Shown here: piece after piece, positions 2,462 through 34,738 of the stretch
Numbering within the stretch: position 1 is the first letter of the stretch
How the letters are laid out: every line of letters begins with the position of its first letter
Source: a virus
Reading direction: 5' to 3' (one strand)
Length of the DNA stretch: 64,000 bases
IMG/VR virus record: IMGVR_UViG_3300011268_001497
Coordinates: 1 to 64,000 of that record
Program-made: the position numbers and the translations under genes
The notes under the pieces: model-generated
The model's database searches: none
Seen by the model: only the letters and a program-made list of their open reading frames with translations
What the model was told of the DNA's origin: nothing

Positions 2462-3085
2462 ATGGCAAGAAAAAGTAGGGAGTTCAAGCTAAGTAAAGAG
2501 CAGCAACGCTTGGCGGCTGAGAATATTAATCTTGCCAGAAGAGAAGCTTGGAAGCTTCAAAGAACTACTGATATTGATTACGATACGCTTGAGGGTGCGG
2601 CACTAGAGGGACTTTGCAAGGCTGCCTACAGATATGATCCATCTTCTGGATACAAGTTCAGCAGTCTTGCCGTGCCAACCATCAGGGGCGAACTACTGCA
2701 TTGGATCAGGGATAGAACCTATGCCATGCGGTTGACTCATAAGATGCGCGAAACGTGGATCAAGGGCCGCAGGCTTGTTTACAGGGGTGTCTGCGACGAA
2801 GACATTGCCAAAGAGCTCAACATTGAAATCTCCGAATGGCAAGAGATCAAAAGCGTATGCTCTGGCCCGCCGCTTGAGTTAAATGATCAGGCCAAGCCTA
2901 CAGAATGCCTCGAACCGGATGAGATCGATTTCGCCGAGGACTTCATGGTAAGAGCTTGGCATGCCTACAGAGCCCTGGATGAACAGGACAAGAGTTCAAT
3001 CATGAATTACTTTTGTAATAGTTCTTCAAGAAACCCGGCCTCTGCTATGTCCAGCTTCTACTACCTCAGCCAAAATAGCCACTGA
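2462..3085 (+). CDS. sigma-70 family RNA polymerase sigma factor (apparently lacking region 4.2)
   Basis: 207 aa; region 2 signature DTLEGAALEGLCKAAYRYDPSSGYKFSSLAVPTIRGELLHWIRDR; region 3-like HTH DEDIAKELNIEISEWQEI; region 4.1-like LDEQDKSSIMNYF; the last 23 aa do not look like a region 4.2 HTH. Confidence 0.75.
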   Translation: MARKSREFKLSKEQQRLAAENINLARREAWKLQRTTDIDYDTLEGAALEGLCKAAYRYDPSSGYKFSSLAVPTIRGELLHWIRDRTYAMRLTHKMRETWIKGRRLVYRGVCDEDIAKELNIEISEWQEIKSVCSGPPLELNDQAKPTECLEPDEIDFAEDFMVRAWHAYRALDEQDKSSIMNYFCNSSSRNPASAMSSFYYLSQNSH

Positions 3086-11160: not shown

Positions 11161-11454
11161 ATGAAACAGTCAAGACATGCAAGATATATGCAACAAAAAA
11201 GAAGAGAGAACCGAGATAGGTTAGTCAGTTTATTTGGGGGCAAATGCATTCGCTGTGGATTCGCCGACCATCCCTCTGCTTTTGACTTTCATCATATTGA
11301 CCCCTCAACAAAAGAGATTTCTAGCTCGCTGGCTCAAATGAGTCTTAAGTACGAAAAAGTTGAGAAGGAAGCGGCTAAGTGCATTATGGTTTGCGCCAAC
11401 TGTCATCGCGAAATTCATGCTAGACTTAGCGAGCTACAACGTGAGCCGACGTAG
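11161..11454 (+). CDS. HNH endonuclease
   Basis: ORF 11146..11454, ATG at 11161; CIRCG...FDFHHIDPSTK...CIMVCANCHREIHA; last 10 nt overlap tRNA-Arg. Confidence 0.8.
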   Translation: MKQSRHARYMQQKRRENRDRLVSLFGGKCIRCGFADHPSAFDFHHIDPSTKEISSSLAQMSLKYEKVEKEAAKCIMVCANCHREIHARLSELQREPT

Positions 11455-11517
11455 TTCAGCGGATAGAACAACGCTCTTCTAAAGCGTGTGTCGCAGGTTC
11501 GATTCCTGCCGTCGGTG
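11445..11517 (+). tRNA. tRNA-Arg (anticodon TCT)
   Basis: Hand fold: GCCGACG/CGTCGGT acceptor (one G-U), D arm GTTC..GAAC, anticodon arm ACGCT-CTTCTAA-AGCGT, T arm GCAGG-TTCGATT-CCTGC; CCA encoded at 11518-11520. Confidence 0.85.
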
Positions 11518-11520
11518 CCA

Positions 11521-11593
11521 GCTCCTCTAGCAATCTGGTGAATGCAGCGGACTCATAATCCGCCTTAGGCGAGTTCGATCCTCGCGGGGAGCA
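11521..11593 (+). tRNA. tRNA with CAT anticodon (elongator Met or Ile-lysidine type)
   Basis: Acceptor GCTCCTC/GGGGAGC, anticodon arm GCGGA-CTCATAA-TCCGC, T arm GCGAG-TTCGATC-CTCGC; CCA encoded 11594-11596; no initiator features (no GGG/CCC anticodon stem). Confidence 0.85.
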
Positions 11594-11599
11594 CCACAA

Positions 11600-11682
11600 G
11601 CCACGATGCTGAAACTGGTAAACAGAACGCACTTAAAATGCGTCGGCCCTTGGTCTTACGGGTTCGATTCCCGTTCGTGGCA
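11600..11682 (+). tRNA. tRNA-Leu (anticodon TAA), class II with long variable arm
   Basis: Acceptor GCCACGA/TCGTGGC, anticodon arm ACGCA-CTTAAAA-TGCGT, 14-nt variable arm, T arm ACGGG-TTCGATT-CCCGT; 83 nt; no encoded CCA. Confidence 0.85.
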
Positions 11683-12012
11683 CTAATCAAGCTGCTTTAC
11701 ACCCGCATGCACTTCGGCGTGACAGTTGGCGCAAAGCAGAGCACACTTATCAATTTCGTCTTTCAGCATTTGAATGCTAGCCCTTCTTTCGAGTGCCGAA
11801 ACAGATGCGATCTTGGTAGAAGGATCCCTGTGGTGAAAATGCATTACCCTTGGATGGTATTTAGTATTACAGAGCTCACATGGATTATCCTTGGCATCAA
11901 TAACAAGGTTCCTCTTTGTGATAATCCCGCCTTGCTGGGATCTCGGCTTTTTATTGCGTTTATGCCATTCACGTTGATAGACCCTCTGAGTCTCTCTATC
12001 CTTGTAGGCCAC
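11683..12012 (-). CDS. HNH endonuclease (paralogue of 11161..11454)
   Basis: 109 aa; CELCN...MHFHHRDPSTK...CALLCANCHAEVHA; stop codon abuts the 3' end of tRNA-Leu. Confidence 0.8.
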   Translation of the reverse strand: MAYKDRETQRVYQREWHKRNKKPRSQQGGIITKRNLVIDAKDNPCELCNTKYHPRVMHFHHRDPSTKIASVSALERRASIQMLKDEIDKCALLCANCHAEVHAGVKQLD

Positions 12013-20304: not shown

Positions 20305-20350
20305 TCCCGCTTTCCGGCTTGCATATTATTCCTTATCCACTTCTCAAACC

Positions 20351-20378
20351 TGTCTCATGAGACCCTCTTGATGAGACA
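20351..20378. promoter_or_regulatory. inverted repeat TGTCTCAT-N12-ATGAGACA upstream of the leftward gene 19993..20304
   Basis: Perfect 8-bp arms at 20351-20358 and 20371-20378, about 50-75 bp upstream of the ATG at 20304. Confidence 0.4.
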
Positions 20379-20474
20379 AAACCATCCCTTCACCCCTTTC
20401 TCAACTCTCTCAAAAGGGTATCTTTAAACTACCCCTAAGGGGTATCCTCAGACAACCCTTTTACCCCAAACGCT

Positions 20475-20538
20475 TTAATGTAATATTATTATCTAGAGTA
20501 TATATATTAATATATATATATTAACTAGATACTACTAG
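20475..20538. repeat. AT-rich palindromic block A
   Basis: TTAATGTAATATTATTATCTAGAGTATATATATTAATATATATATATTAACTAGATACTACTAG; (TA)n arms around a TTAA centre. Confidence 0.7.
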
Positions 20539-20595
20539 CTCTTATCAACTTGGTTAACAAGAACAACAGCCAATACTAAAAATCCTTCCTACCAT

Positions 20596-20614
20596 TGTCC
20601 TCCTTCGGAGGACA
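20596..20614. other. perfect 8-bp hairpin TGTCCTCC-TTC-GGAGGACA followed by TTTCCTTCCTTCCTTTCC
   Basis: Read directly at 20596-20632. Confidence 0.6.
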
Positions 20615-20884
20615 TTTCCTTCCTTCCTTTCCGCCAGCTAATTTTTTTTCTAAAAAAACCTTTTCTCTGTACCCTACACCCCATGGTTTTATCTGAAAGC
20701 CTCTGAGAGGTGTCTAGAAGCCCCTGGAAGACCCTTCTACTACCGCTTGGCTATCTTTCCCTATCCATACCCCCTAGAACCCTGTTACAGAGCCTTACAG
20801 ACCTAACCCCTCTCGCAACACCTAAAACCCTCCCTCAAATCCCTAAAACTGAAAATCATTCTCATCCCTCCAGTACTCATACGA

Positions 20885-20921
20885 CCCTCACCCCCTATAC
20901 CCCCTTAATCCCTTAAATCCC
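20885..20921 (-). other. G-quadruplex-type motif on the minus strand (five C3-5 tracts on +)
   Basis: CCC-TCA-CCCCC-TATA-CCCCC-TTAAT-CCC-TTAAAT-CCC; all loops 3-6 nt, satisfying G3+N1-7 x4 on the complementary strand. Confidence 0.6.
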
Positions 20922-21035
20922 TTCCAATATCTACATCCCCTAATCCAATTAACTACTTACTTACCCCCTTAACTACCCATTTTGATAAGGTTTAATCAGT
21001 TAATCTGATCATTCCTAGTACTACTAACCAGATAA

Positions 21036-21200
21036 GGTAATATGACCTAGTAACTAGTATATATATATTATAATATATATATTAATATATATAATCTAGT
21101 TATAGTATTTAAATACTCTGTATTTAAATACGATTAATCTAGTTATTCTAGTTAACTAATCTATCTAGTAATATTAATCTAGTTATTCCTAGTAATAACC
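21036..21200. repeat. AT-rich block B with iteron-like direct repeats and tandem palindromes
   Basis: TAATCTAGTTAT at 21092, 21135 and 21175 (17-mer ATTAATCTAGTTATTC shared by the last two; diverged copy TTAATCTGATCATTCCTAGTA near 21000); perfect palindrome GTATTTAAATAC at 21105-21116 and 21120-21131; (TA)n run 21056-21095. Confidence 0.75.
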
Positions 21201-21228
21201 CCCTCCCATAACCCTCTCATCCCCCTCT

Positions 21229-21441
21229 TTAACCCCATTTTTGAGGCCTTTCAGCCCCTCGCTGACGGTCAATCCAAAACAGAAAATGCCGCCGAACAGA
21301 CATCCGATTTCCCTTTTTCCCGTCGGCTGATTTTCCCTTTTTAAGATTTCTCAAAATGAGACGCGATGAGACGATGTCCAGGTCTTTGAGTACCTGTCTC
21401 AAACACAGGTACGCAGGAATTGGACCGACCCAGTCCCACAT
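21229..21441 (-). CDS. doubtful hypothetical protein (70 aa)
   Basis: ORF 21229..21558, ATG at 21441; upstream part of the track ORF runs through repeat element E1, so only the short form is plausible. Confidence 0.3.
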   Translation of the reverse strand: MWDWVGPIPAYLCLRQVLKDLDIVSSRLILRNLKKGKSADGKKGNRMSVRRHFLFWIDRQRGAERPQKWG

Positions 21442-21531
21442 CGCCTGACGGCGTGATCGCGAATAATAAGATATAATGATATCGTTATGCCAAGATCTAG
21501 ACCGACCCCGACCGAGTCCTCGCGACGGCGC

Positions 21532-21566
21532 GATCGTGAATGGCGCAAATGCGGCCATTCACGCTC
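21532..21566. repeat. cassette palindrome E1
   Basis: GATCGTGAATGGCGCAAATGCGGCCATTCACGCTC; CGTGAATGGC / GCCATTCACG 10-bp perfect arms. Confidence 0.8.
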
Positions 21567-21570
21567 ACCA

Positions 21571-21592
21571 AATAAAAAAGCCCCGAAGGGCT
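21571..21592 (-). terminator. rho-independent terminator (leftward)
   Basis: Minus strand reads AGCCC-TTCG-GGGCT followed by TTTTTTATTT; overlaps the stop of 21591..21779. Confidence 0.75.
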
Positions 21593-21779
21593 AAGAAGAT
21601 CTTATTCTCCAAGATTCGACCCAATAATGATCATCTGGGCATTCTCGATTCATTTCCTCTATGTGTTCTCTTGCTGCTGACATATTGTCGTAGATATCGC
21701 ATAGCCCCGTGTCGAAAGATTGAACAACGAACACCTCTTTACCGACGGGCCTGAGGACAATAATATCAGAGTTTGTCAT
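21591..21779 (-). CDS. hypothetical protein (62 aa)
   Basis: ORF 21591..21980, ATG at 21779 (14-nt overlap with upstream gene); MTNSDIIVLRPVGKEVFVVQSFDTG... Confidence 0.45.
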   Translation of the reverse strand: MTNSDIIVLRPVGKEVFVVQSFDTGLCDIYDNMSAAREHIEEMNRECPDDHYWVESWRIRSS

Positions 21780-22122
21780 AGCGCCAGCCCCAGCGTGGAA
21801 CGTAAGTGTAAAGATACTCGCAGCCCATGTTAAATGCGAATCGAGCCATTTCGCCGGCAGTAAGCCTACGGGGTTGGCAGTCAAGATCGCCTCTGTCGAT
21901 ATAGTATCTGGGGCCAACCTCCATAACGTTACCATTCCAATCAGTGGTGGCGCTAAGTGTAGACATGCTGCCAGGTGCAATCATCTTGCGGGCCTTCTTT
22001 GCCGTATCGTAACTGGTGGTAAGAATCGCCATTTGGTGCTCTGGATAGCCGTCATAATGACAGTAGACAATGTCATAAGTTGCATCCGGATTGCGTACAG
22101 CAATTGCAGAACGTGTTCCCAT
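21766..22122 (-). CDS. hypothetical protein (118 aa)
   Basis: ORF track; MGTRSAIAVRNPDATYDIVYCHYDGYPEHQ. Confidence 0.55.
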   Translation of the reverse strand: MGTRSAIAVRNPDATYDIVYCHYDGYPEHQMAILTTSYDTAKKARKMIAPGSMSTLSATTDWNGNVMEVGPRYYIDRGDLDCQPRRLTAGEMARFAFNMGCEYLYTYVPRWGWRYDKL

Positions 22123-22124
22123 GA

Positions 22125-22280
22125 TTAACCCTCGATAACTTGAATGTTTTCCTCGTCTAGCCAGTCGTCGAATTCTGGCAGATGAAGATAATCGTCGCCG
22201 TAGCCGATTGGTGAAGGATCGAAGTTGTCGGCGAATTCTTTGTATTCAGCCTTGGCCTGTTCGGCAGTCAACTGGCGCAT
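22125..22280 (-). CDS. possible small acidic protein (51 aa), below ORF-track cutoff
   Basis: Hand translation MRQLTAEQAKAEYKEFADNFDPSPIGYGDDYLHLPEFDDWLDEENIQVIEG*; fills the gap between 22284 and 22122 exactly. Confidence 0.4.
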   Translation of the reverse strand: MRQLTAEQAKAEYKEFADNFDPSPIGYGDDYLHLPEFDDWLDEENIQVIEG

Positions 22281-22283
22281 GAT

Positions 22284-22526
22284 TCAGTCTCCTTCGTTCC
22301 AGAACAGTTCGTATTCAGCGAAGCATCGAATGGCGTTATCGAGATCACCGTAGTGGTACTCCCTTTGAACGTAGAAGTTCTTCTCTACAGCTACCGGGTC
22401 GATGCAGACACCGTACTTTTCTTTCAGTCCGTCGGCGACATAATCGCAGAACTGAGCGAAGCTATCCCAAACGAGTTCCCAGTAGTCAGGGGATTCGAGG
22501 GAGCGGGGGTCGTGGAGGCAGGTCAT
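22284..22526 (-). CDS. hypothetical protein (80 aa)
   Basis: ORF 22284..22556, ATG at 22526 directly preceded by the conserved leader. Confidence 0.55.
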   Translation of the reverse strand: MTCLHDPRSLESPDYWELVWDSFAQFCDYVADGLKEKYGVCIDPVAVEKNFYVQREYHYGDLDNAIRCFAEYELFWNEGD

Positions 22527-22557
22527 GGGAGTGTTCCCTTGCGACTCCCTAATCATA
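22527..22557 (-). promoter_or_regulatory. conserved -10/leader cassette
   Basis: Minus strand: TATGAT-tagggaGTCGCAAGGGAacacTCCC-ATG. Confidence 0.6.
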
Positions 22558-22608
22558 ACGCATCAGCAGCCGGTCAGCCACTCAAGAGCAAATCTTTACA
22601 AAGCGCGT

Positions 22609-22649
22609 GAGCGTGAGTAAGGCCTCGCTTCGCGACGTTACTCACGATC
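22609..22649. repeat. cassette palindrome E2
   Basis: GAGCGTGAGTAAggcctCGCTTCGCGacgTTACTCACGATC; 9-bp arms CGTGAGTAA / TTACTCACG. Confidence 0.8.
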
Positions 22650-22675
22650 AAAATAAAAGGGGCGCTTGGCCCCTT
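22650..22675 (-). terminator. rho-independent terminator (leftward) after 22681..22866
   Basis: Hairpin AAGGGGC-GCTTG-GCCCCTT; minus strand followed by TTTTATTTT. Confidence 0.75.
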
Positions 22676-22680
22676 GTTTA

Positions 22681-22866
22681 TTATTTAATTTTGCAGATCC
22701 TATCTGATAGTTCCTCTAGCCTGTCGGGCTTAAAGTGCCACTTAAGATCTGATAATAGTTCCGGTTCGATAGGTTGATCCTGGACAATTTTCCAGAGAAT
22801 ATCTAAACCGTTGATAATCATTGTCCATTCATTCTTGTTAACAATGATGTGGCGACCTTCATTCAT
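22681..22866 (-). CDS. hypothetical protein (61 aa)
   Basis: ORF 22681..22905 (GTG); ATG at 22866 preceded by GGAG and overlapping the upstream small ORF (ATGAATGA). Confidence 0.5.
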   Translation of the reverse strand: MNEGRHIIVNKNEWTMIINGLDILWKIVQDQPIEPELLSDLKWHFKPDRLEELSDRICKIK

Positions 22867-23011
22867 CTTCAAGCTCCGTGTATTTGTAGGCCTGGATTGT
22901 TTCACCTAGCTTTATGTCTAGGTTTTGGTAGATAGCGTCCGGGATCCATTTTCGGGGATGGGCCGCATTATCATCAAGAGATAGGACGACCCTGATTTCA
23001 TACCGTTTCAT
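22859..23011 (-). CDS. possible small protein (50 aa), below ORF-track cutoff
   Basis: Hand translation MKRYEIRVVLSLDDNAAHPRKWIPDAIYQNLDIKLGETIQAYKYTELEDE*; ATGA overlap with the stop of 23008..23976. Confidence 0.4.
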   Translation of the reverse strand: MKRYEIRVVLSLDDNAAHPRKWIPDAIYQNLDIKLGETIQAYKYTELEDE

Positions 23012-23976
23012 CGTGCTAGCTCTAGAGCGGATTCGTGGGCTTTTTTGATAATCAGTGAGCCAGAGCCAAACAGAGCTGAATGCATACGGTGCTGGTTTGC
23101 ACCCTTGCTGCGCTGCGATGATTCCACCTCAGTTACAGCATTCAGGCCGTGGTAAACCGTACCGCGAACCCCGGCAATATCCATGCCGATGCCATAATGC
23201 CAGGCATGTTCCAGCTTTTTCCATTTCTGGGACAGATCTTCAATGCGACCAGGGCGGTCAACTTTAGCGGGGATAGTGTAGAGGGTTTCCAGCCAATGGC
23301 GATACATATCGAATGACATAGGGGCAGATTGCATTGCCCGATAATCATCGACCACGCTAACGAAGGATTGCCGGGCCATATCAATGGTTTGCAGAACACG
23401 GTCAATTTGCGCGATGTCGTTAGCGGTATGCTTAATGGTGAACTGTTTACCAGTACGGTTAGCGTCAGACTGAGCGAAGCCCAGTGTATTTGCGCACACT
23501 ACGCGAACATTTGTGAACATGCCGCCGAATGCTGTTTTGCCATCGTGGCCGAGGTATCCCACAATATTGCGGTGGATCTTGTCACCAGGCACAACCTCAT
23601 GATCGCTACCCCGCAGGCGGGCAGTGAAGGCCACCTTGGCGCCACCTTTCAAGACGATAACCGTATCCATATCAACCTCCTCGCGAATCGCCTCAGCGAA
23701 GCGCAACAGTTGATTGTTTTGGATAGGCTTGTAATGATCGGAGGCCCTGCCTAGGATCGTGCGGGTATCAGGCCGCCAGATGACCCGGTCATTCGGCATA
23801 TCAATATATTCGCCGTCAGCCGGGTTGGCTGCCATGCGGATAGCCTGGACAGGAAATAAAGCACCGGCGCGGGTAAAGGCTTCGCTTGCTGGCAGCGTGC
23901 CCTCTACAACTTCACCAAGACCATGCCATGCGGCCTGGCCATTCATCATGATGCCGGAAGTGAACTCGTGAGCCAT
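23008..23976 (-). CDS. DUF932-like phage/plasmid protein
   Basis: 322 aa; N-terminal GQAAWHGLG and central NVRVVCANTLGF resemble the DUF932 / TIGR03299 family as I recall it; not searched. Confidence 0.6.
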   Translation of the reverse strand: MAHEFTSGIMMNGQAAWHGLGEVVEGTLPASEAFTRAGALFPVQAIRMAANPADGEYIDMPNDRVIWRPDTRTILGRASDHYKPIQNNQLLRFAEAIREEVDMDTVIVLKGGAKVAFTARLRGSDHEVVPGDKIHRNIVGYLGHDGKTAFGGMFTNVRVVCANTLGFAQSDANRTGKQFTIKHTANDIAQIDRVLQTIDMARQSFVSVVDDYRAMQSAPMSFDMYRHWLETLYTIPAKVDRPGRIEDLSQKWKKLEHAWHYGIGMDIAGVRGTVYHGLNAVTEVESSQRSKGANQHRMHSALFGSGSLIIKKAHESALELAR

Positions 23977-24009
23977 GGGAGGATTTCCTCTCGGGACCCC
24001 TTTACTATA
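23977..24009 (-). promoter_or_regulatory. conserved -10/leader cassette (variant)
   Basis: Minus strand: TATAGT-aaaggGGTCCCGAGAGGAaatcCTCCC-ATG. Confidence 0.55.
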
Positions 24010-24069
24010 CAGCAGACTGAGCCAGAACGCAGTGGAATCACAAAACTTAACAAAGGACTGGCGCCGTGT

Positions 24070-24110
24070 GACCGTGATAAACGTCGCTTCGCGAGGCCTT
24101 TATCACGATC
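24070..24110. repeat. cassette palindrome E3
   Basis: GACCGTGATAAAcgtCGCTTCGCGaggccTTTATCACGATC; 9-bp arms; interior is the inverse of the E2 interior. Confidence 0.8.
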
Positions 24111-24120
24111 TCGATCCTTA

Positions 24121-24151
24121 AATATAAAATAGGGGACTGATTTAGCCCCCT
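24121..24151 (-). terminator. probable terminator (leftward) after 24160..24891
   Basis: Minus strand: AGGGGGCTAAATCAGTCCCCT followed by ATTTTATATT. Confidence 0.6.
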
Positions 24152-24159
24152 AAAGTAAT

Positions 24160-24891
24160 TCAAACTAGTTGGACATGTTTCTTGCCGGAACCGTGTGCTT
24201 CGACCCATATATCTTGCTTACCGCCATCGCATAATTTGCAAGTGATACATTGTGCCATTGATTGCTCAATTGTGGCCGGGCATTGCTTCCCGAAAGAATT
24301 ATTTTTAGCGCCGACAGGTAGCACGCTAAATGTATGCCAGCCATGAGCAGTTGCCTCCAGATAATCATTGAAACCATCGCAAGATGCCTGAAAATATTTT
24401 TTATAAAGTTGGGCGAATTGTTGCCGCCATTGGTGAGTGTACCCGGTATGCGCCTTGGCGAAGCGATTGAAGAACTCAAAAACAGAGAAGGGAATCAGCG
24501 CAGGGTCACCATAAGCTCCCCAGCGGATTGAACGCCCTTTAAGCATCTTCTGTACGGCTTCAATGTTATCAAGGGCCGGCGGATAGCAGCCGCGATGGTA
24601 TGCTTTCCAGATGCTATTTGGCGACTGGCCAACATTAACATAGCAGGATCTTTTTTTTGTTTCAGGATTTTTTCTGTGGATACAATCGCCGCAGATAGAA
24701 TAATCCGCACCGATCTCAATAGCCTCAACCGGATTAATGTCCCGCAGCATAATCCAGACCTGGCACATATTGCCCGTCTTGCGATTCGTGCTTTCTAAAG
24801 TAACAATAGCGACACACTCTTTACCATCAATCAGGGAGGGGAATTCGGCGAGGACGTAACCCTTGGGCGCTTGCTTTTTGTTGGATTGCAT
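24160..24891 (-). CDS. hypothetical Cys-rich protein (243 aa)
   Basis: ORF track; cysteine clusters ICGDCIH, CYVN, CITCKLCDG suggest metal binding; no family recognised. Confidence 0.55.
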   Translation of the reverse strand: MQSNKKQAPKGYVLAEFPSLIDGKECVAIVTLESTNRKTGNMCQVWIMLRDINPVEAIEIGADYSICGDCIHRKNPETKKRSCYVNVGQSPNSIWKAYHRGCYPPALDNIEAVQKMLKGRSIRWGAYGDPALIPFSVFEFFNRFAKAHTGYTHQWRQQFAQLYKKYFQASCDGFNDYLEATAHGWHTFSVLPVGAKNNSFGKQCPATIEQSMAQCITCKLCDGGKQDIWVEAHGSGKKHVQLV

Positions 24892-25090
24892 TTTGCTGTT
24901 TGTTGTTGAGATGATTTAGGACACGGTAAGCCACTTCAAAAAATAAATATCCCACAAAAACCAGGGGAATATATAAAGAAATGGCGGCGATGATGGGGAA
25001 GAAAATGAACGCGACTGATTGAACAATCGGAGCCGGTACGGTTAAGCCTTCCTCTGGAATGATGTAAACAGGTGGCGCCGGTGGTGGCAT
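24827..25090 (-). CDS. hypothetical small membrane protein (87 aa)
   Basis: ORF track; two hydrophobic helices (VAFIFFPIIAAISLYIPLVFVGYLFF); preceded by leader variant; 65-nt overlap with the next gene makes the 3' part uncertain. Confidence 0.4.
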   Translation of the reverse strand: MPPPAPPVYIIPEEGLTVPAPIVQSVAFIFFPIIAAISLYIPLVFVGYLFFEVAYRVLNHLNNKQQNAIQQKASAQGLRPRRIPLPD

Positions 25091-25124
25091 AAGGGGAGTG
25101 TTCCCGTGTTGCTCTGTCAGTGTA
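25091..25124 (-). promoter_or_regulatory. -10/leader cassette (variant)
   Basis: Minus strand: TACACT-gacagagcaacacGGGAacacTCCCctt-ATG. Confidence 0.45.
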
Positions 25125-25235
25125 GCCTAAACATCCGGCCAGCGCAAGACAACGCCTATTCATCGCCGGCATGGTATAAGGGTATAACGCTACTGTTTTG
25201 GAATGGTTAGAAATCGTTACAGAAGGAGGCTGCGT

Positions 25236-25276
25236 GAGCGTGATCAACGCTTCGCGGAGCGACGTTGGTCACGATC
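25236..25276. repeat. cassette palindrome E4 (in the divergent region between leftward and rightward units)
   Basis: GAGCGTGATCAACGCTTCGCGgagcgaCGTTGGTCACGATC; arms CGTGATCAACG / CGTTGGTCACG with one G-T. Confidence 0.8.
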
Positions 25277-25303
25277 AGGAAACTTAAAGCAGAAATATTT
25301 TTT

Positions 25304-25477
25304 ATGATGGATTTCGAAGACAAGATCAAGCTCGTCAGAGAAAAAGCACAGGCATATGTCGACATTAAAAAGGCGGAAGCCTTTGAGGCGCAGATTAAAG
25401 CGTATGAAATGCAGTTAGAAAGAATCAAGCAGAACCCGTCTTTGATGGAACCAAAGTCATCGTCTAAAATGAACTGA
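25304..25477 (+). CDS. hypothetical coiled-coil protein (57 aa)
   Basis: ORF 25265..25477 (TTG inside E4); ATG at 25304 preferred. Confidence 0.45.
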   Translation: MMDFEDKIKLVREKAQAYVDIKKAEAFEAQIKAYEMQLERIKQNPSLMEPKSSSKMN

Positions 25478-25524
25478 TATAGCGATTGGTATCGGTTTGA
25501 GAAAAGATGTCCGCCTGTCGGCGT

Positions 25525-25562
25525 GACCGTGAATGGCGGTCGCACGACCATCGTTCACGATC
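25525..25562. repeat. cassette element E5
   Basis: GACCGTGAATGGCGGTCGCACGACCATCGTTCACGATC followed by AATTTTTATTA. Confidence 0.8.
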
Positions 25563-25602
25563 AATTTTTATTACGGCCCTCGCTTTCGGGTGGGGGCTTT
25601 GC

Positions 25603-25633
25603 TATGATTAAGAGGTCCCAAGGGAGTAGTCCC
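25603..25633 (+). promoter_or_regulatory. conserved -10/leader cassette
   Basis: TATGAT-taagagGTCCCAAGGGAgtagTCCC-GTG; preceded by GC hairpin GGCCCTCG..CGGGTGGGGGC. Confidence 0.6.
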
Positions 25634-25831
25634 GTGACTTCCAATCAGCTGAACGCCCAATGCGCCGAGATCCTTGATGCAATGGAGGTTCTGGTTGCTC
25701 GTTTCGACAGTCTGCGCAATCTGGCTAGTGATGACGCGTGGGATGCGGCATGCACTGAGAAGCCCTATCTCGACCTGCTTTCAGATATAGAGTACGAGGT
25801 TGAACAGGCTCTGGAGGCGATTCGCGTTTGA
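25634..25831 (+). CDS. hypothetical acidic protein (65 aa)
   Basis: ORF 25523..25831; upstream part of the track ORF runs through E5 and the leader, so GTG at 25634 right after the leader is preferred. Confidence 0.45.
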   Translation: MTSNQLNAQCAEILDAMEVLVARFDSLRNLASDDAWDAACTEKPYLDLLSDIEYEVEQALEAIRV

Positions 25832-25864
25832 TCGTGACTGGCGGTACGACCATCGTTCACGCTC
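25830..25864. repeat. cassette element E6
   Basis: GATCGTGACTGGCGGTACGACCATCGTTCACGCTC; the TGA stop of the preceding ORF (25829-25831) is part of TGATCGTGA. Confidence 0.8.
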
Positions 25865-25908
25865 AGATAATTTTTGTTTCAGGCCTTGCTAAAGGGCTCG
25901 GCCTTCTG

Positions 25909-25939
25909 TATTCTTGAAAAGTACCAAGGGAATCATCCC
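25909..25939 (+). promoter_or_regulatory. conserved -10/leader cassette
   Basis: TATTCT-tgaaaagTACCAAGGGAatcaTCCC-ATG; preceded by hairpin AGGCC..GGCCT. Confidence 0.55.
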
Positions 25940-26125
25940 ATGAACTCTGCACTTCTGGATCGCGGCCTCCTGCCTTTCGACAAGCTCAACATTGCCTTCT
26001 GCGCCCGCCAGCGAGCCGTGCTCAATACGCGGACTAGCGAGGAGTTCGAGGGCGAATACAACACGGCTCACCTGTGGATGCGCCATACGCTGCAAACCAT
26101 GGGAGGCAGGAACTGGAGCTACTGA
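25940..26125 (+). CDS. hypothetical protein (61 aa), paralogue of 27316..27528
   Basis: ORF 25874..26125, ATG at 25940 after leader; FDKLNIAFCARQRAV matches FDWLNLAHCATQRAM in the minus-strand ORF 27316..27528 (10/15 identical). Confidence 0.5.
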   Translation: MNSALLDRGLLPFDKLNIAFCARQRAVLNTRTSEEFEGEYNTAHLWMRHTLQTMGGRNWSY

Positions 26126-26137
26126 AACTGCGAGCTT

Positions 26138-26173
26138 GATCGTGACTGGCGCCTGCGACCATCGTTCACGCTC
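26138..26173. repeat. cassette element E7
   Basis: GATCGTGACTGGCGCCTGCGACCATCGTTCACGCTC; nearly identical to E6 except the centre. Confidence 0.8.
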
Positions 26174-26198
26174 ACTAAATACCAACGAGGGAAACCCC

Positions 26199-26432
26199 AT
26201 GACCGTCACTGCTAAGTCCACCAAGGCTGAGATCCTGGCCGCCTACGAGGCACTGAAAGCTCAGCAAGAATCCCAGACCATCACTTGGCCCCTTGTCGTC
26301 AGCACAGCCCGCACCGTAGCCCGCGAGACTCACCTGCTGGTTGTCGACGTTCAGAAGGGCGTAACCCTTGCAGCGCAATGGATCTCGGGAATAGTTGCCG
26401 AGCTGACCAAACCAGTGCTACACTCGGCTTGA
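26199..26432 (+). CDS. hypothetical protein (77 aa)
   Basis: ORF 25992..26432, ATG at 26199 preceded by caacgaGGGAaaCCCC (short leader variant) 25 nt after E7. Confidence 0.45.
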   Translation: MTVTAKSTKAEILAAYEALKAQQESQTITWPLVVSTARTVARETHLLVVDVQKGVTLAAQWISGIVAELTKPVLHSA

Positions 26433-26466
26433 TCGTGATTGACGCCTGCGGCCATTGTTCACGCTC
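26431..26466. repeat. cassette element E8
   Basis: GATCGTGATTGACGCCTGCGGCCATTGTTCACGCTC; preceding stop TGA (26430-26432) embedded in TGATCGTGA. Confidence 0.8.
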
Positions 26467-26509
26467 AGAAAACTTTTATTACGGCCTCGCTCAAGCGGGG
26501 CCTTTGCTG

Positions 26510-26540
26510 TATGATGGAGGAGTCCCAGGGAATAATCCCG
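26510..26540 (+). promoter_or_regulatory. conserved -10/leader cassette
   Basis: TATGAT-ggaggaGTCCCAGGGAataaTCCCg-ATG; preceded by 8-bp hairpin GGCCTCGC-TCAA-GCGGGGCC. Confidence 0.6.
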
Positions 26541-26819
26541 ATGTCACGCACCACCGACTTCATCATCGATCTTGAGGATGCCCAGCTTGCGGCTGACCTT
26601 GCCTCGTATCAAACTGCAGGCCAGCTCTGCGTTCTCAGCAATCTCGTCTGGCGTGCCGGTCGACAAGAGGGTCCGTCTCTCGATGTGCCGTTGGCTGGAA
26701 TCGAACAGCACTGGATCGATGCCATGCGCGACCAGCTCCGGGAAGCACTGGTTTGCCTGGATGAACTGCAGGCTGCGAACGAGGCTCTGGAGTGTGAGAG
26801 AGGTCTCGCTACCGTCTGA
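26541..26819 (+). CDS. hypothetical protein (92 aa)
   Basis: ORF 26439..26819, ATG at 26541 after leader; N-terminus MSRTTDFII resembles MSATTDHIL of 26980..27246. Confidence 0.5.
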   Translation: MSRTTDFIIDLEDAQLAADLASYQTAGQLCVLSNLVWRAGRQEGPSLDVPLAGIEQHWIDAMRDQLREALVCLDELQAANEALECERGLATV

Positions 26820-26849
26820 TCGTGACGCCTGCGGCCATTGTTCACGCTC
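26818..26849. repeat. cassette element E9 (5-nt shorter copy of E8)
   Basis: GATCGTGACGCCTGCGGCCATTGTTCACGCTC; preceding stop TGA (26817-26819) embedded. Confidence 0.8.
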
Positions 26850-26932
26850 ATTAGCATAACTTATCAATCAGGGCCGACCGATCAGGATCGCTTATCATTA
26901 CAAAAGTTCACAAAAACTTTTTCACTAAAAAG

Positions 26933-26956
26933 CCCCCAGTACAGATGTACTAGGGG
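26933..26956. terminator. probable bidirectional terminator between convergent units
   Basis: CCCCCAGTAC-AGAT-GTACTAGGGG flanked by AAAAAG upstream and TGAATTGTTT downstream. Confidence 0.6.
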
Positions 26957-26979
26957 TGAATTGTTTATACTTAGCAGGC

Positions 26980-27246
26980 TTAGCGTTGTTGTTGATTAAG
27001 GTGTCGGTTGAGTGTAAACAATTGGGCGTGCCAATCAGTGATGGCGTCGACGCAAGATCCTACCGAATCGATGTCAAGATCTGTGCAGGGCATCAGATTA
27101 TTTATCAGCATTGTTGAAACGTCAAGCAATGCCATTCGGTAGAAGAACCTCTCTGAATCATTGAGCGAAGCGTACATGGGATTTGCTTCGATTAGCTGTT
27201 CGATCAGTTCAGCCTGAGAGAGGATGTGGTCGGTGGTTGCGCTCAT
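26980..27246 (-). CDS. hypothetical protein (88 aa)
   Basis: ORF 26980..27312, ATG at 27246 directly after leader. Confidence 0.5.
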   Translation of the reverse strand: MSATTDHILSQAELIEQLIEANPMYASLNDSERFFYRMALLDVSTMLINNLMPCTDLDIDSVGSCVDAITDWHAQLFTLNRHLNQQQR

Positions 27247-27277
27247 GGGATTGTTCCCTTGGGACTCCTTTATTATA
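27247..27277 (-). promoter_or_regulatory. conserved -10/leader cassette
   Basis: Minus strand: TATAAT-aaaggaGTCCCAAGGGAacaaTCCC-ATG; preceded by hairpin AGGGG..CCCCT (27284-27305). Confidence 0.65.
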
Positions 27278-27315
27278 GAGGGTAGGGGCCACTGGTGCGA
27301 CCCCTGTAACAAGTC

Positions 27316-27528
27316 TTAGTACTTTGCTGCCTTCTTCGCCAGCGCTCGGGCTGCGTGATATTCGCTGTAGAATCCGTCATGAGACAGGCCGGCCTGAGCC
27401 ATGGCCCGTTGGGTTGCGCAGTGTGCGAGGTTGAGCCAATCGAACAGGCTCAGTTCTTCGTCTGTCTTATCACCGCACCGCCAGACGGCGAGGTTGAGAT
27501 CAGCGAGGTGGGAATCAGTGAGGGCCAT
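27316..27528 (-). CDS. hypothetical protein (70 aa), paralogue of 25940..26125
   Basis: ORF 27316..27639 (GTG), ATG at 27528 after leader; shares FD.LN.A.CA.QRA and EY..A motifs with 25940..26125. Confidence 0.5.
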   Translation of the reverse strand: MALTDSHLADLNLAVWRCGDKTDEELSLFDWLNLAHCATQRAMAQAGLSHDGFYSEYHAARALAKKAAKY

Positions 27529-27581
27529 GGGGATCTCCCCTTGGGACCCCTCTAGTATAGCGCAATGGATGGGCGTGTCAA
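27529..27581 (-). promoter_or_regulatory. near-consensus sigma-70-type promoter plus conserved leader
   Basis: Minus strand: TTGACA-N16-TATACT-agagGGGTCCCAAGGGGagatCCCC-ATG. Confidence 0.7.
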
Positions 27582-27627
27582 CAATGTTACGAGATGTGAC
27601 GTGGTGGCGTGGTGGTGGTGGATGGTG

Positions 27628-27659
27628 TAGGATGGGCACATCACCAAGGGAGCATTCCC
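27628..27659 (+). promoter_or_regulatory. -10-like hexamer plus conserved leader (rightward)
   Basis: TAGGAT-gggcacatCACCAAGGGAgcatTCCC-ATG; back-to-back with the leftward promoter at 27554-27581. Confidence 0.5.
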
Positions 27660-27893
27660 ATGAGACCCTTCCTCCTTGCCGCCGCCTTCTCCTGTGGATC
27701 TGCCATGGCAGGGGTGTTCTACCTCAGCAGCATGGCAACCCCCATCATCAGCGAAGCTCGGGCAGAGAAGCTCGGTGCATACTGCGAGGCAGGTGTGCCC
27801 GAAGCATGCGAGATCCTAGCGGCCGAGTCGAATGGACAGTGTGCCGGACCCTCGGGCAGTGGCTGCCTCTATAACAGTAGCGTTATGAGGTGA
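27660..27893 (+). CDS. hypothetical secreted Cys-rich small protein (77 aa)
   Basis: ORF 27609..27893, ATG at 27660 after leader; signal-like MRPFLLAAAFSCGSAMA; 6 further cysteines. Confidence 0.5.
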   Translation: MRPFLLAAAFSCGSAMAGVFYLSSMATPIISEARAEKLGAYCEAGVPEACEILAAESNGQCAGPSGSGCLYNSSVMR

Positions 27894-27904
27894 TGTGCAG
27901 CACG

Positions 27905-27924
27905 GGTGGTACAGGCGTACCACC
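27905..27924 (+). other. perfect 8-bp hairpin GGTGGTAC-AGGC-GTACCACC after 27660..27893
   Basis: Read directly; T-run (TTTTTT) lies about 20 nt downstream, so terminator function is uncertain. Confidence 0.4.
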
Positions 27925-28000
27925 CCCCACCCCCGAAAATTCCTTTTTTAGTGCCAAAGCAACCCCCTCAGGTTTTCTGAGAAAATTTCCGAAACCGAAA

Positions 28001-28159
28001 ATGCCACTTTCAAAATTGACCACCAAGTTTTTGATTATTATTTTTATGATGACGTTATTTAGTGGAGTAGCGGAGGCTAAGCGAGAGAAGAGTGAGCAGA
28101 AGTGGAGGAGTTGTTGGGTGACGAGGGGCAATGTAAGGACGAGGGTTATTTGTCAATAA
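28001..28159 (+). CDS. possible small secreted basic peptide (52 aa)
   Basis: ORF 27890..28159, ATG at 28001; MPLSKLTTKFLIIIFMMTLFSGVAEA then KREKSEQKWRSCWVTRGNVRTRVICQ; a stop-free + frame is unusual in C-poor sequence where all three stops are frequent. Confidence 0.3.
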   Translation: MPLSKLTTKFLIIIFMMTLFSGVAEAKREKSEQKWRSCWVTRGNVRTRVICQ

Positions 28160-28316
28160 GGGAGGAGAGGTGATTTAGTTTAAGGAGGATATAGGAGAGG
28201 AGAGGGGTACCGATGAGGGAGGAGTAGAGAGCGATACGGATTTCATGTTGGCGGATTTTATCGTCCATTTGGCGTAGGAGCCAGGGAGTTATGGTGGGGT
28301 CAGAGGAGGTTTCGAT

Positions 28317-28341
28317 GGGGTCTGGGCGACGGGATTGGGGG
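28317..28341 (+). other. canonical G-quadruplex motif on the + strand
   Basis: GGGG-TCT-GGG-CGAC-GGG-ATT-GGGGG. Confidence 0.65.
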
Positions 28342-28654
28342 TTAGAGGTCATGATCAGGCGATAGAGCGAAGGTAGTCGCGTTGTTTTGGGGTAAGGAGA
28401 GGGAGGAGGCGGAGGAGGAGTTTTTTAGAGGGATCTAGGTCTAGGGTTGAGTACATAGTGGATAGGATTTGTTTAATTGCGATAGTGTAAGAGGATTGGA
28501 TAGCGAGGTAGAGGGCGAGGGTGAGGGTTAATTGTTGATGCATTGGATAGGAGTAGAGTTATATGATTAATTCTAGGGCAATATTAGGAAAACTAGTGGT
28601 TATTTACGAATAAAAGTATGAATATTGGAAGTATAAGGGGAGTAAGTAGGCATT

Positions 28655-29347: not shown

Positions 29348-29417
29348 AGATTTCGTTAACAATTGAGGTAAACTGAATAAGTCCAAAAGTTTGGGCTTGT
29401 TCTTACTTATTACTTCA

Positions 29418-30497
29418 ATGACTGCTACACTTTCACGCCAGCAGCCAGTAAACCAATGGGACTCATTCTGCGAATGGGTAACGAGCACTTCAAACCGTCT
29501 TTATGTGGGTTGGTTTGGTGTTTTGATGATTCCTTGCTTGCTAGCTGCGACGACTTGCTTTATCCTTGCGTTCATTGCTGCCCCACCGGTTGACATTGAT
29601 GGCATCAGGGAGCCCGTTGCTGGTTCGTTGCTTTATGGCAACAATATTATTTCTGGGGCTGTTGTACCCTCTAGTAACGCTATTGGTTTACACTTTTATC
29701 CAATTTGGGAGGCGTCGGGTTTAGAGGAATGGTTATATAATGGTGGGCCTTATCAGTTGGTTGTATTTCATTTTCTGATTGGTGTTTTTGCATATGCTGG
29801 TCGGGAATGGGAGCTTAGCTACCGACTTGGTATGCGTCCTTGGATTTTTGTTGCCTACCTCGCCCCTGTTGCTGCTGCTACTGCAGTGTTCCTCGTCTAT
29901 CCGTTTGGACAGGGTTCCTTCAGTGATGGTATGCCTCTTGGCATTTCAGGAACATTTAATTACATGCTTGTTTTTCAGGCGGAGCATAATATCCTCATGC
30001 ACCCCTTCCATATGCTTGGGGTGGCTGGTGTATTTGGGGGTTCTTTGTTCTCTGCTATGCATGGATCTTTGGTCACTTCTAGTCTCGTTCGCGAGACGAC
30101 TGAAGAAGTAAGTCAGAACTATGGCTACAAATTTGGGCAAGAAGAAGAGACGTATAACATTGTTGCCGCTCATGGCTACTTTGGCCGTCTTATTTTTCAA
30201 TATGCTTCTTTTAACAATAGCAGGAGCTTACACTTCTTCCTTGCTGCCTGGCCTGTTGTTGGCATTTGGTTTGCTGCTCTTGGTGTTAGCACCATGGCTT
30301 TCAACCTGAATGGCTTTAATTTCAACCAATCGCTTCTTGACAACAATGGTCGGGTGGTTAATACTTGGGCTGATGTACTTAATAGAGCTAACCTTGGTTT
30401 TGAGGTAATGCATGAGCGCAATGCTCATAACTTCCCTCTTGATCTTGCTTCTGCCAGCACGGTTAATGTTGCATTAACTGCTCCTGAAATTGGTTGA
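29418..30497 (+). CDS. psbA: photosystem II reaction-centre protein D1
   Basis: ORF 29391..30497, canonical start MTATLSRQQ at 29418; near-complete match to D1 throughout ([53 protein letters not shown] plus C-terminal extension); uninterrupted. Confidence 0.97.
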
Positions 30498-34587: not shown

Positions 34588-34738
34588 GGCACGTTCATTC
34601 GCTGTTTCCGAATGGCGAACGGAAGTAAGCCGACTTTTACTCGTATTCTCAATAAATTCATTTTATTGAGAATCCTGATAGCCGACTGAAGGAACGCGCT
34701 TTTGGTGTATGATTCACTACAAAGCGGAGGACTTCATC

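Follow-up and report, generated by a model that had tools for sequence, protein, structure and literature searches.

Promoter-early stem-loops (PeSLs) have been described in T4-type phages (Arbiol et al. 2010, PMC2839356; Comeau et al. 2014, PMC4122927). By definition, a PeSL combines an AT-rich tract, which holds the upstream stop codon, with a sigma-70-like promoter, a GC stem-loop that separates or overlaps the boxes of this promoter, a Shine-Dalgarno sequence and a start codon (PMC2839356). Clustered upstream of ORFans in hyperplastic regions, these motifs give rise to indels through recombination, and both their promoter and terminator activities and encapsidated mini-circles have been shown experimentally (PMC2839356, PMC4122927). 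No comparable PeSL density was found in a study of the cyanomyovirus S-PM2 (PMC4503421). A second relevant system is found in Cluster K mycobacteriophages, where SAS and ESAS repeats have been described and the 13-bp SAS consensus, GGGATAGGAGCCC, is located 3 to 7 bp before start codons (Pope et al. 2011, PMC3203893). Here, we examined an array of small genes in a 64,000-nucleotide (nt) stretch of viral DNA (IMG/VR record IMGVR_UViG_3300011268_001497, positions 1 to 64,000; referred to below as the window). The genes of this array, between 21.2 and 27.9 kb, are separated by a recurring set of non-coding parts, namely, a palindromic element, an A-run or T-run, a short GC hairpin, and a -10-like hexamer joined to a leader that ends at the start codon. 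The source, which has a portal protein 62 to 66% identical to those of the Synechococcus siphoviruses S-CBS2 and S-CRES1 to S-CRES3, is by sequence a 76-kb S-CBS2/S-CRES-like Synechococcus siphovirus from an estuary.

An original prediction, made from the letters of the window, held that the array was a modular, duplicating and shuffling system for early or accessory genes rather than an ordinary operon and that its architecture was undescribed. The first part of this claim was upheld, as the junction parts are kept in relatives while the genes between them differ, and indels, an inversion and a duplication of cassettes were detected. The second part was not: the A/T-run, the GC hairpin and the hexamer with its leader match the published definition of PeSLs (PMC2839356, PMC4122927), and the pairing of leader and palindrome resembles SAS/ESAS (PMC3203893). 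By this analogy, the architecture is to be regarded as a variant of PeSL-type mobile regulatory cassettes. We could not find a description of such cassettes at high density in cyanobacterial siphoviruses or of a clade-specific, orientation-fixed palindrome forming integron-like arrays in estuarine metagenomes. The term "early" had been derived from promoter type only and was not retained.

Palindromes, leaders and hairpins of the array

The window was searched with the pattern CGTGA-N12-32-TCACG. Nine distinct sites were detected, all between 21.5 and 26.9 kb (matches at 21532, 22609, 24070, 25236, 25525, 25830, 26138, 26431 and 26818), against a chance expectation of 0.59, and this count was not reached in any of 100 shuffles. 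The single match elsewhere in the window, at 33690, was unrelated. The element is 32 to 45 nt long and has the form TGAnCGTGA...TCACGnTCA. These ends, in which base n is free, were present in all 26 aligned copies and enclose an interior of variable length, with 17 to 29 nt between the arms. A covariance model was built from the 26 copies, among which no covariation was detected; the outer seven pairs never vary, and no helix emerges from the alignment of the interior. In the commonest subtype, the interior is conserved in sequence rather than in pairing. The outer TGA of the element (TCA on the other strand) often forms the stop codon of the adjoining open reading frame (ORF), and the distance from element to -10-like hexamer in the window ranges from 39 to 112 nt. 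Spacings of 303, 308, 293 and 387 bp separate the elements of the rightward run, with one ORF in each interval.

Ten near-identical leaders were detected (Table 1), with a consensus of CCAAGGGA-N4-TCCC immediately before the ATG, and exact and one-mismatch matches to AAGGGA-N4-TCCC are concentrated in the array region. A purine-rich AAGGGA/GGAG sequence, a putative Shine-Dalgarno sequence, lies 7 to 8 nt before the ATG. In 9 of the 10 leaders, a TAnnnT hexamer is present 25 to 28 nt before the start, at exactly 25 nt in six cases, and the hexamer, leader and start codon form one fixed block of approximately 37 nt. Some hexamers are preceded by TG, and a good -35 box is present at one promoter-like site only (an 11/12 match; start 27528). 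The 26199 gene is probably cotranscribed with the 25940 gene. The leader contains a mini-hairpin, GGGA-N4-UCCC, which is found clade-wide with the variants GGGG/CCCC, GAGG/CCUC, GGG/CCC and GGA/UCC; internal genes of the leftward operons are without it. In a pair count on hand-picked sequences, 85% of cells paired compared to 78% in shuffles and 66% or less when the partner was slid, and one pair was double-changed. Covariation of the mini-hairpin is therefore suggestive and weak.

Eight GC hairpins were found in the array, and seven of these, adjoined by T-runs or A-runs, were picked up by a terminator scan. Four hairpins (upstream of the 25634, 25940, 26541 and 27246 starts) are located 4 to 6 nt upstream of the -10-like hexamer. 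On the + strand, the order of element, A/T-run and GC hairpin holds for elements 1, 2, 3, 5, 6 and 8; elements 4 and 7 run straight into a start codon, and element 9 also deviates. Folding above the level of shuffled sequence was detected for elements 1 to 5 only (z -3.3 to -4.5). For the four non-folding copies of the rightward run, the combination of element and U-run would be a weak terminator because there is no excess folding and the T-runs begin 7 to 8 nt past the stem, and the GC hairpin is the more plausible terminator. These results agreed with the original prediction with respect to the nine elements, their lengths and their ends (given as GA[T/C/G]CGTGA...TCACG[A/C]TC), their recurrence in the rightward run every 293 to 387 bp with one ORF each, the order of parts in six of nine cases, the recurring hairpins with A/T-runs and the approximately ten near-identical leaders with -10-like hexamers. 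The further claim that rightward transcripts meet the element and a U-run first held for the order of these parts and was not supported for the strength of the terminator.

The locus in related phages

Relatives were examined with the covariance model and by alignment of loci and contigs, which carry labels beginning with L. The model detected nine copies in the window, seven in L162, four in L155, three in L138 and two each in L153, L157 and S-CRES1, and all were at this locus; none was detected elsewhere in the window, in the rest of the S-CRES1 genome or anywhere in S-CBS2. In S-CRES1, the two copies flank gp61 and gp62, the latter annotated as an S-adenosylmethionine (SAM) hydrolase, and this locus has an AT-only "tatata" block on the left, shared with the left flank of the window array, and a CCCCCCACCCCCGA...AAATTCCGAAAC motif on the right, as in the window. 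Overall, the element was found in at least 20 contigs. Among complete genomes, arrays are carried by the phage of the window and by the 84- to 86-kb contigs behind L132 and L203, and S-CBS2, L137, L150 and L151 have none. Contigs from IMG/VR carry one to seven copies, with the seven copies of L059/L162 spaced 290 to 540 bp apart. Larger arrays were detected in metagenomes, with 12 copies in L198, 10 in L212 and 7 to 8 in L222 within 1.8 kb; the spacing is mostly 235 to 430 bp, and each gap holds one ORF of 35 to 120 amino acids (aa) on either strand. All copies within a metagenome contig are co-oriented, and copies are near-identical inside an array and different between arrays. At loci that could be oriented by their flanks, 23 of 23 copies in relatives match the model best on one strand, whatever the strand of the genes.

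A total of 37 loci were fetched by means of a small glutaredoxin-like gene to the right of the array. Most of these contigs start 0.3 to 3 kb upstream of this gene, often inside an element, and hence short-read assemblies break in the array. The right boundary motif (27908 to 28005) is kept in nearly all relatives, regardless of cassette content. A scan of 185,579 species genomes with the exact pattern of the commonest subtype matched only unrelated soil and high-GC bacteria, never more than once per contig, with no match in cyanobacteria and no arrays, which ruled out a host repeat as the origin of this subtype. In IMG/VR, a first, loose element pattern matched 120 loci, mostly by chance, with only L059 and L105 being genuine, and the exact leader pattern gave only six single matches, apparently by chance. 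The arrays of the window, L162, L200, L212 and L217 are 3 to 17 GC points richer than their backbones (59% versus 43% in L162), a difference pointing to a higher-GC origin of the cassette genes.

Alignments of the window with L135, L132 and L138 detected junctions that are 77 to 86% identical, between which genes are replaced, inserted or missing. The leader and -10-like hexamer are kept in L131, L135 and L138, while the leftward terminator-like site and a 110-nt segment preceding it are kept in L135, L138 and L132. Compared to L135, the stretch comprising the last element, the 110-nt segment and the terminator-like site is 86% identical and is followed by an unrelated gene; further on, a hairpin/promoter junction is 81% identical and is followed by a homologous gene. 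The 110-nt segment (26850 to 26960) is better conserved than the neighbouring genes and is a candidate small RNA or regulatory site. L132 has an extra leftward gene after the terminator-like site, which is duplicated on both sides of it, and lacks the 27316 gene of the window.

A clean difference of one cassette was detected between L212, which has a SAM-hydrolase-like cassette, and L199, which does not. The breakpoints lie within a directly repeated module of approximately 75 nt, consisting of element and leader; the alignments overlap by approximately 80 nt in L199 (element and leader to the ATG), and the module is present twice in L212. Relative to the orientation of the element, the same cassette points in opposite directions in S-CRES1 and L212. 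Similarly, the gene family of 26199-26432 is rightward in the window and leftward relative to the same flank in L138, L162 and L212, and it is duplicated, with 78% identity, in L162. Overall, the repeats were restricted to one locus and conserved across the clade, and they bounded cassettes that differed between relatives with breakpoints in the junctions. Variation of cassettes between conserved junction parts had been proposed in the original prediction as the test of a modular system, and an absence of either conservation or variation was not what the relatives displayed.

Gene content and genomic setting

Approximately 20 ORFs had been proposed for the array. We retained 17 well-supported ORFs and one, 21591-21779, supported by position only, and the two larger proteins singled out earlier, a DUF932 protein (Pfam, E = 4.5e-30) and a 243-aa Cys-rich protein (PHROG 2554, 2e-61; weak DUF7227 match), were both recovered. 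A 109-aa ORF at 21229-21558 is probably not a gene, because it spans element 1 and has neither a leader nor a homologue. The small ORFs proposed for 25.3 to 28.5 kb were exactly matched by an independent gene call in a second assembly (L240). Fourteen ORFs had no family above threshold, and Pfam and PHROGs searches gave no function for the small proteins. Homologues of the 25634 and 26199 genes are present in L138, L162 and L212 and those of the leftward pair 26980-27528 in L135 and L132; the last ORF, 27660-27893, has 68% aa identity to L133 and 66% to L135. All array copies of elements and leaders lie within 21.5 to 27.7 kb.

Table 1. Coordinates of array features in the window (hexamers, leaders and terminators are predicted; fold values are for RNA)
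Feature	Position	Strand	Remarks
Element copy 1	21532..21566	.	then A-run and GC hairpin; -19.0 kcal/mol, z -4.5
Element copy 2	22605..22649	.	extra outer GCGTGA hexamer; then A-run and GC hairpin; -17.8 kcal/mol, z -3.3
Element copy 3	24066..24110	.	stems swapped relative to copies 2 and 4, central TTCG retained; -15.7 kcal/mol, z -3.4
Element copy 4	25232..25276	.	divergence point; 27 nt upstream of ATG 25304; -20.4 kcal/mol, z -3.8
Element copy 5	25521..25562	.	then T-run and GC hairpin; -19.1 kcal/mol, z -4.4
Element copy 6	25830..25864	.	first bases are TGA stop of 25634 gene; palindrome decayed; z -0.8
Element copy 7	26138..26173	.	25 nt upstream of ATG 26199, no promoter between; z -0.2
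Element copy 8	26431..26466	.	overlaps TGA stop of 26199 gene; z -0.4
Element copy 9, shortened	26818..26849	.	overlaps TGA stop of 26541 gene; z +0.15
-10-like TATGAT, leader, ATG	22524..22557	-	start 22526
-10-like TATAGT, leader, ATG	23974..24009	-	start 23976 (DUF932); leader hairpin variant GAGG/CCTC
-10-like TACACT, leader, ATG	25088..25124	-	start 25090
-10-like TATGAT, leader, GTG	25603..25636	+	start 25634; TGC before hexamer
-10-like TATTCT, leader, ATG	25909..25942	+	start 25940
Leader alone, no -10-like hexamer	26174..26201	+	start 26199; directly after element 7
-10-like TATGAT, leader, ATG	26510..26543	+	start 26541
-10-like TATAAT, leader, ATG	27244..27277	-	start 27246
TTGACA, 16 nt, TATACT, leader, ATG	27526..27581	-	start 27528; leader hairpin variant GGGG/CCCC
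-10-like TAGGAT, leader, ATG	27628..27662	+	start 27660
GC hairpin and T-run, terminator-like	21579..21592	-	end of leftward unit 21591-22526; terminator scan
GC hairpin and T-run, terminator-like	22657..22675	-	end of leftward unit 22681-23976; terminator scan
GC hairpin and T-run, terminator-like	24130..24152	-	end of leftward unit 24160-25090; terminator scan
GC hairpin	25575..25598	+	between T-run and -10-like hexamer of 25634 unit; scan match 25582-25597
GC hairpin	25881..25905	+	between T-run and -10-like hexamer of 25940 unit; scan match 25893-25905
GC hairpin	26483..26502	+	between T-run and -10-like hexamer of 26541 unit; top-scoring terminator-like site
GC hairpin and T-run, terminator-like	26933..26956	-	end of leftward pair; duplicated round extra cassette in L132
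GC hairpin, no T-run	27284..27305	-	6 nt upstream of TATAAT of 27246 unit; 81% identical to L135
Leftward unit, four ORFs	21591..22526	-	22284-22526, 22125-22280, 21766-22122 (PHROG 1987), 21591-21779
Leftward unit, three ORFs	22681..23976	-	DUF932 23008-23976, then 22859-23011, 22681-22866
Leftward unit, two ORFs	24160..25090	-	24827-25090 (87 aa, hydrophobic); 24160-24891 (243 aa, Cys-rich, PHROG 2554)
Rightward run, five single ORFs	25304..26819	+	25304-25477, 25634-25831, 25940-26125, 26199-26432, 26541-26819
Leftward ORF pair	26980..27528	-	27316-27528, 26980-27246; own predicted promoter and leader each
Last cassette, rightward ORF	27660..27893	+	77 aa, signal peptide, many cysteines
Conserved non-coding segment	26850..26960	.	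last element to leftward terminator-like site; 86% L135, 77% L138, 84% L132
Right array boundary	27908..28005	.	GGTAC..GTACC hairpin, then ACCCCCCACCCCCG, then AAAATTTCCGAAACCGAAAATGCC
Duplicated left flank of element 1	21414..21541	.	51-nt direct duplication; degenerate half-element GGCGTGATCGCGAAT at 21450-21464

The window covers most of a phage genome, with genes for terminase, primase, ribonucleotide reductase, portal and tape measure proteins as well as psbA (29391-30497), and the tape measure protein and S-CBS2-like portal are those of a siphovirus-type cyanophage. Synteny with relatives extends over psbA and the conserved genes of the right flank. A megablast search with the region detected no nucleotide-level relatives among deposited phages, and relatives were reached through proteins. 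An identical DUF932 protein was found on two estuary-metagenome assemblies (76,460 and 76,478 bp) that agree in gene order; the presence of the array in two assemblies indicated that it is not an assembly artefact. Other assemblies of this phage are 100% identical over their overlaps, so that there were no strain-level cassette variants to compare, and they break at 27930 and within the DUF932 gene. One of these contigs starts exactly at 27930, inside the right boundary motif.

The array lies between a non-coding, AT-rich, strand-skewed stretch on the left and the conserved psbA-side block on the right. Approximately 1.3 kb of the left stretch (20305 to 21590) is non-coding and very C-rich (GC skew -0.5), with AT-only palindromes at 21040 to 21110 and repeated "aatctagtta" units, and a G-rich stretch to the right of the array (27900 to 28600; skew +0.64) mirrors it. 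These skewed flanks may be an origin or control region. Once compositional skew was allowed for, direct or inverted repeats around the whole array, as insertion footprints, were not above shuffled controls. The duplication at 21414 to 21541 looks like the leftover of an earlier junction.

Several other features were observed in this phage. Two sigma-factor-like proteins are encoded, a SigF-like protein beside the terminase gene (2462-3085) and an RpoD-like protein outside the window (L237 4885-5670), and some conserved promoters of the genome may be read by a phage sigma factor and not by that of the host. Five tRNAs were detected in the window, three of them adjoining at 11445-11683: one with a CUA anticodon (ARAGORN label "Pyl"; 67.8 bits in Rfam), a possible amber-suppressor tRNA, followed by tRNA-Met and tRNA-Leu(UAA). 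A glutamine riboswitch (RF01739; 40.8 bits versus a gathering score of 35) is located at 34590-34700 on the + strand, between the psbA block and the structural genes. Two tail-region proteins, one encoded at 51114-52202 and the other of 1124 aa from approximately 61.4 kb (L238 11916-15290), have an N-terminal Mtd (major tropism determinant) domain. In Bordetella phage BPP-1, Mtd is diversified by a diversity-generating retroelement; a reverse transcriptase was not seen here.

Explanations of the array and comparison with known systems

We favour, with a probability of roughly two-thirds, the explanation that the locus is a hyperplastic accessory-gene (ORFan) region made of PeSL-like modules and a clade-specific palindrome, whose repeats give the homology for shuffling. 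The cassettes would be self-contained expression units of one to four small genes linked by reusable junction modules of two types. The PeSL-like type would consist of an A/T-rich run, a GC stem-loop, a TAnnnT -10 hexamer, a fixed leader of approximately 25 nt and the start codon; the stem-loop and U-run most likely terminate the upstream transcript, and the hexamer and leader most likely start and translate the following one. The palindrome would be the second type, marking cassette borders and often giving a TGA stop. Because junctions of 35 to 110 nt recur between unrelated genes, recombination between them could delete, duplicate or replace cassettes. Recombination between the inverted arms of two neighbouring palindromes would flip the intervening gene without moving either core, which would explain bidirectional arrays with co-oriented elements. 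Each cassette would stay expressible, and the locus would act as a fast-turnover store of accessory genes. We infer the promoter, terminator and ribosome-binding activities, the recombination pathway and any RNA-hairpin role of the palindrome in this scheme.

Homologous exchange between repeated junction modules is the best-supported mechanism. Genes for RusA, a PDDEXK exonuclease and SSB are present in the phage, together with one for a homologue of the S-CRES1 protein annotated as a Rad52-type annealing protein. No integrase, transposase or HUH enzyme was detected in the window and the rest of the 76-kb genome (searched with Pfam and PHROGs, with approximately 10 kb of tail genes searched with PHROGs only), nor was any of these present in the S-CBS2 and S-CRES1 annotations or beside the L212 array. 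Processing of the hairpins by a phage RNase III was considered and dropped: S-CRES1 gp1 (L003 70-504), labelled "RNase III endonuclease" in GenBank, has no RNase III-like sequence that would fit this label and no homologue in the window.

Several observations weigh against the favoured explanation. Promoters and terminators are called here by matches to consensus sequences; good -35 boxes are rare, and the GC hairpin occupies the place where one would be expected. Four of the nine elements, all in the rightward run, fold no better than chance (z -0.8 to +0.15). The elements of this run are 84 to 87% identical with exact stretches of only approximately 12 nt, and present-day homologous recombination between such diverged copies would therefore be inefficient. 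Furthermore, the 9-nt ends are near-invariant across phages whose portal proteins are approximately 63% identical, and all 23 oriented copies in relatives share a single orientation whatever the gene strand. Both properties exceed the needs of portable homology and point to an additional, sequence-specific function.

One candidate for such a function is binding of a regulatory protein: the palindrome would be mainly a binding site and the leader a translation-control site, in parallel to ESAS and SAS, with shuffling as a by-product. We consider this unlikely as the main explanation. It would suit the invariant 9-nt arms without covariation, in which seven outer pairs are constant in 26 copies, the interior of the commonest subtype, conserved in sequence and not in pairing, and the rightward-run copies, which keep their sequence and not their fold. 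Elements are found 22 to 33 nt before start codons in L162, L138 and L212, and the leader shares a GGG...CCC form with the SAS repeat (PMC3203893). However, arms separated by a variable 17 to 29 nt are ill-suited to a simple dimer on duplex DNA, the distance to the -10-like hexamer varies (39 to 112 nt in the window), and the position of the element is inconsistent, being after a terminator, over a stop codon or before a start codon. No candidate regulator was identified, and regulation alone does not explain the periodicity of the arrays or the indels of cassettes.

The periodicity would be accounted for by an integron-like, site-specific cassette system, in which the palindrome is an attC-like, single-stranded DNA hairpin site used by a phage or host recombinase for the insertion or excision of single-ORF cassettes. 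Arrays contain as many as 12 imperfect palindromes, invariant at the ends and variable in the core, with one ORF per repeat and a stop codon often inside the repeat; the copies of an array are co-oriented regardless of gene strand and, as in chromosomal integrons, near-identical within an array and different between phages. One strand folds better than the other (G.U versus A.C pairs), irrespective of the ORF strand, and the L212/L199 comparison provides a clean single-cassette indel bounded by elements. This explanation is nevertheless rather improbable. The Pfam hits, which cover most of the 76-kb genome, include no tyrosine or serine recombinase, HUH enzyme or transposase. The attC core GTTRRRY is not matched by the ends of the element, and genes are present on both strands, many with their own predicted promoter. 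The unit repeated in L212/L199 extends for approximately 75 nt through the leader to the ATG, which fits homologous exchange better than cleavage at a fixed site, and four copies in the window persist despite lost hairpin potential. A bolder version, a phage-borne platform of S-CBS2/S-CRES-like cyanophages with up to a dozen or more single-ORF cassettes, in which the orientation-fixed palindrome is a single-strand hairpin site for a recombinase or nuclease and which captures high-GC, possibly host- or phage-derived, accessory or anti-defence genes, is equally improbable.

A reading of the palindrome as a selfish miniature mobile element (MITE, REP or PATE kind) located in intergenic spaces, or as a host repeat acquired by the phage, would suit a small, intergenic, multicopy palindrome with conserved terminal inverted repeats but is very improbable, because the palindrome occurs at a single locus in each genome (the remaining intergenic spaces of the window and S-CRES1 are without copies) and is absent from hosts (the 185,579-genome scan gave single matches, with no cyanobacteria and no arrays), and also given that no transposase or RAYT was found, that 32 to 45 nt is shorter than typical MITEs and that its orientation is fixed across the clade. 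A CRISPR array was rejected, as this would need repeats of 23 to 50 nt with spacers of approximately 26 to 72 nt, whereas the intervals here are 235 to 1000 bp and bear ORFs, with no Rfam CRISPR family.

On the favoured explanation, a mode of phage evolution by mobile regulatory cassettes, so far associated with T4-like myoviruses, would extend to estuarine cyanobacterial siphoviruses. The palindrome provides a sharply defined, searchable marker for the variable accessory-gene locus of this clade, and the conserved flanks would allow amplification or long reads to catalogue cassette turnover in natural cyanophage populations. The array also accounts for the breaks of short-read assemblies in these phages. 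Cassette products, including a protein similar to the annotated SAM hydrolase of S-CRES1, the DUF932 protein and the ORFans, are candidates for host-takeover or anti-defence functions. Should a dedicated enzyme prove to be the reason for the constant orientation and the invariant ends, the array would represent a new recombination system.

Many small, uncharacterised genes also make up the host-takeover module of Bacillus phage SPO1 and other early-gene clusters, where the short operons have a strong host-type promoter, a strong ribosome site and a terminator apiece. The array resembles them in this layout, with predicted promoters, ribosome sites and terminators; cassette-wise variation and a dedicated palindromic repeat are not known features of the SPO1 module. 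Chromosomal super-integrons share with the array a periodic layout in which an imperfect palindrome, conserved at its ends and variable in the middle, comes after each of the small, mostly uncharacterised ORFs, and repeats that are homogeneous within an array, lineage-specific and in a single orientation. The array differs in having no IntI integrase or attI site, in ends that do not match the R'' RYYYAAC/R' GTTRRRY core, in its location in a lytic-type phage genome and in two-stranded genes with nine promoter-like modules, whereas integron cassettes are mostly promoterless and co-oriented.

The resemblance to SAS/ESAS lies in a GGG...CCC sequence with a ribosome-binding site a few bases before the start codons of non-structural genes, approximately half of the sites being preceded by imperfect inverted repeats with a variable spacer, and in the subcluster specificity of the repeats. 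The consensus differs, however (GGGATAGGAGCCC compared to (A)AGGGA-N4-TCCC), as do the spacers (4 to 13 bp in ESAS compared to 17 to 29 nt). SAS/ESAS repeats are dispersed across the right genome half in one transcriptional direction, and cassette shuffling has not been described for them, whereas the elements here form periodic, two-stranded arrays of single ORFs. The likeness to PeSLs extends to the same composite intergenic motif, with a stem-loop at or near the -35/-10 region, to its location upstream of ORFans in a hyperplastic region and to indels and replacements between relatives that break in the motifs. PeSLs are found in T4-like myoviruses, and their activities and mini-circles are experimental results, whereas the array belongs to a cyanobacterial siphovirus and has promoters and terminators predicted from sequence. 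Most of its promoter-like sites have no convincing -35 box, while its -10 hexamer, leader and start codon form a fixed block of 37 nt. Finally, the array possesses an additional palindrome of 32 to 45 nt, with invariant ends, one locus and a fixed orientation, to which PeSLs have no counterpart.

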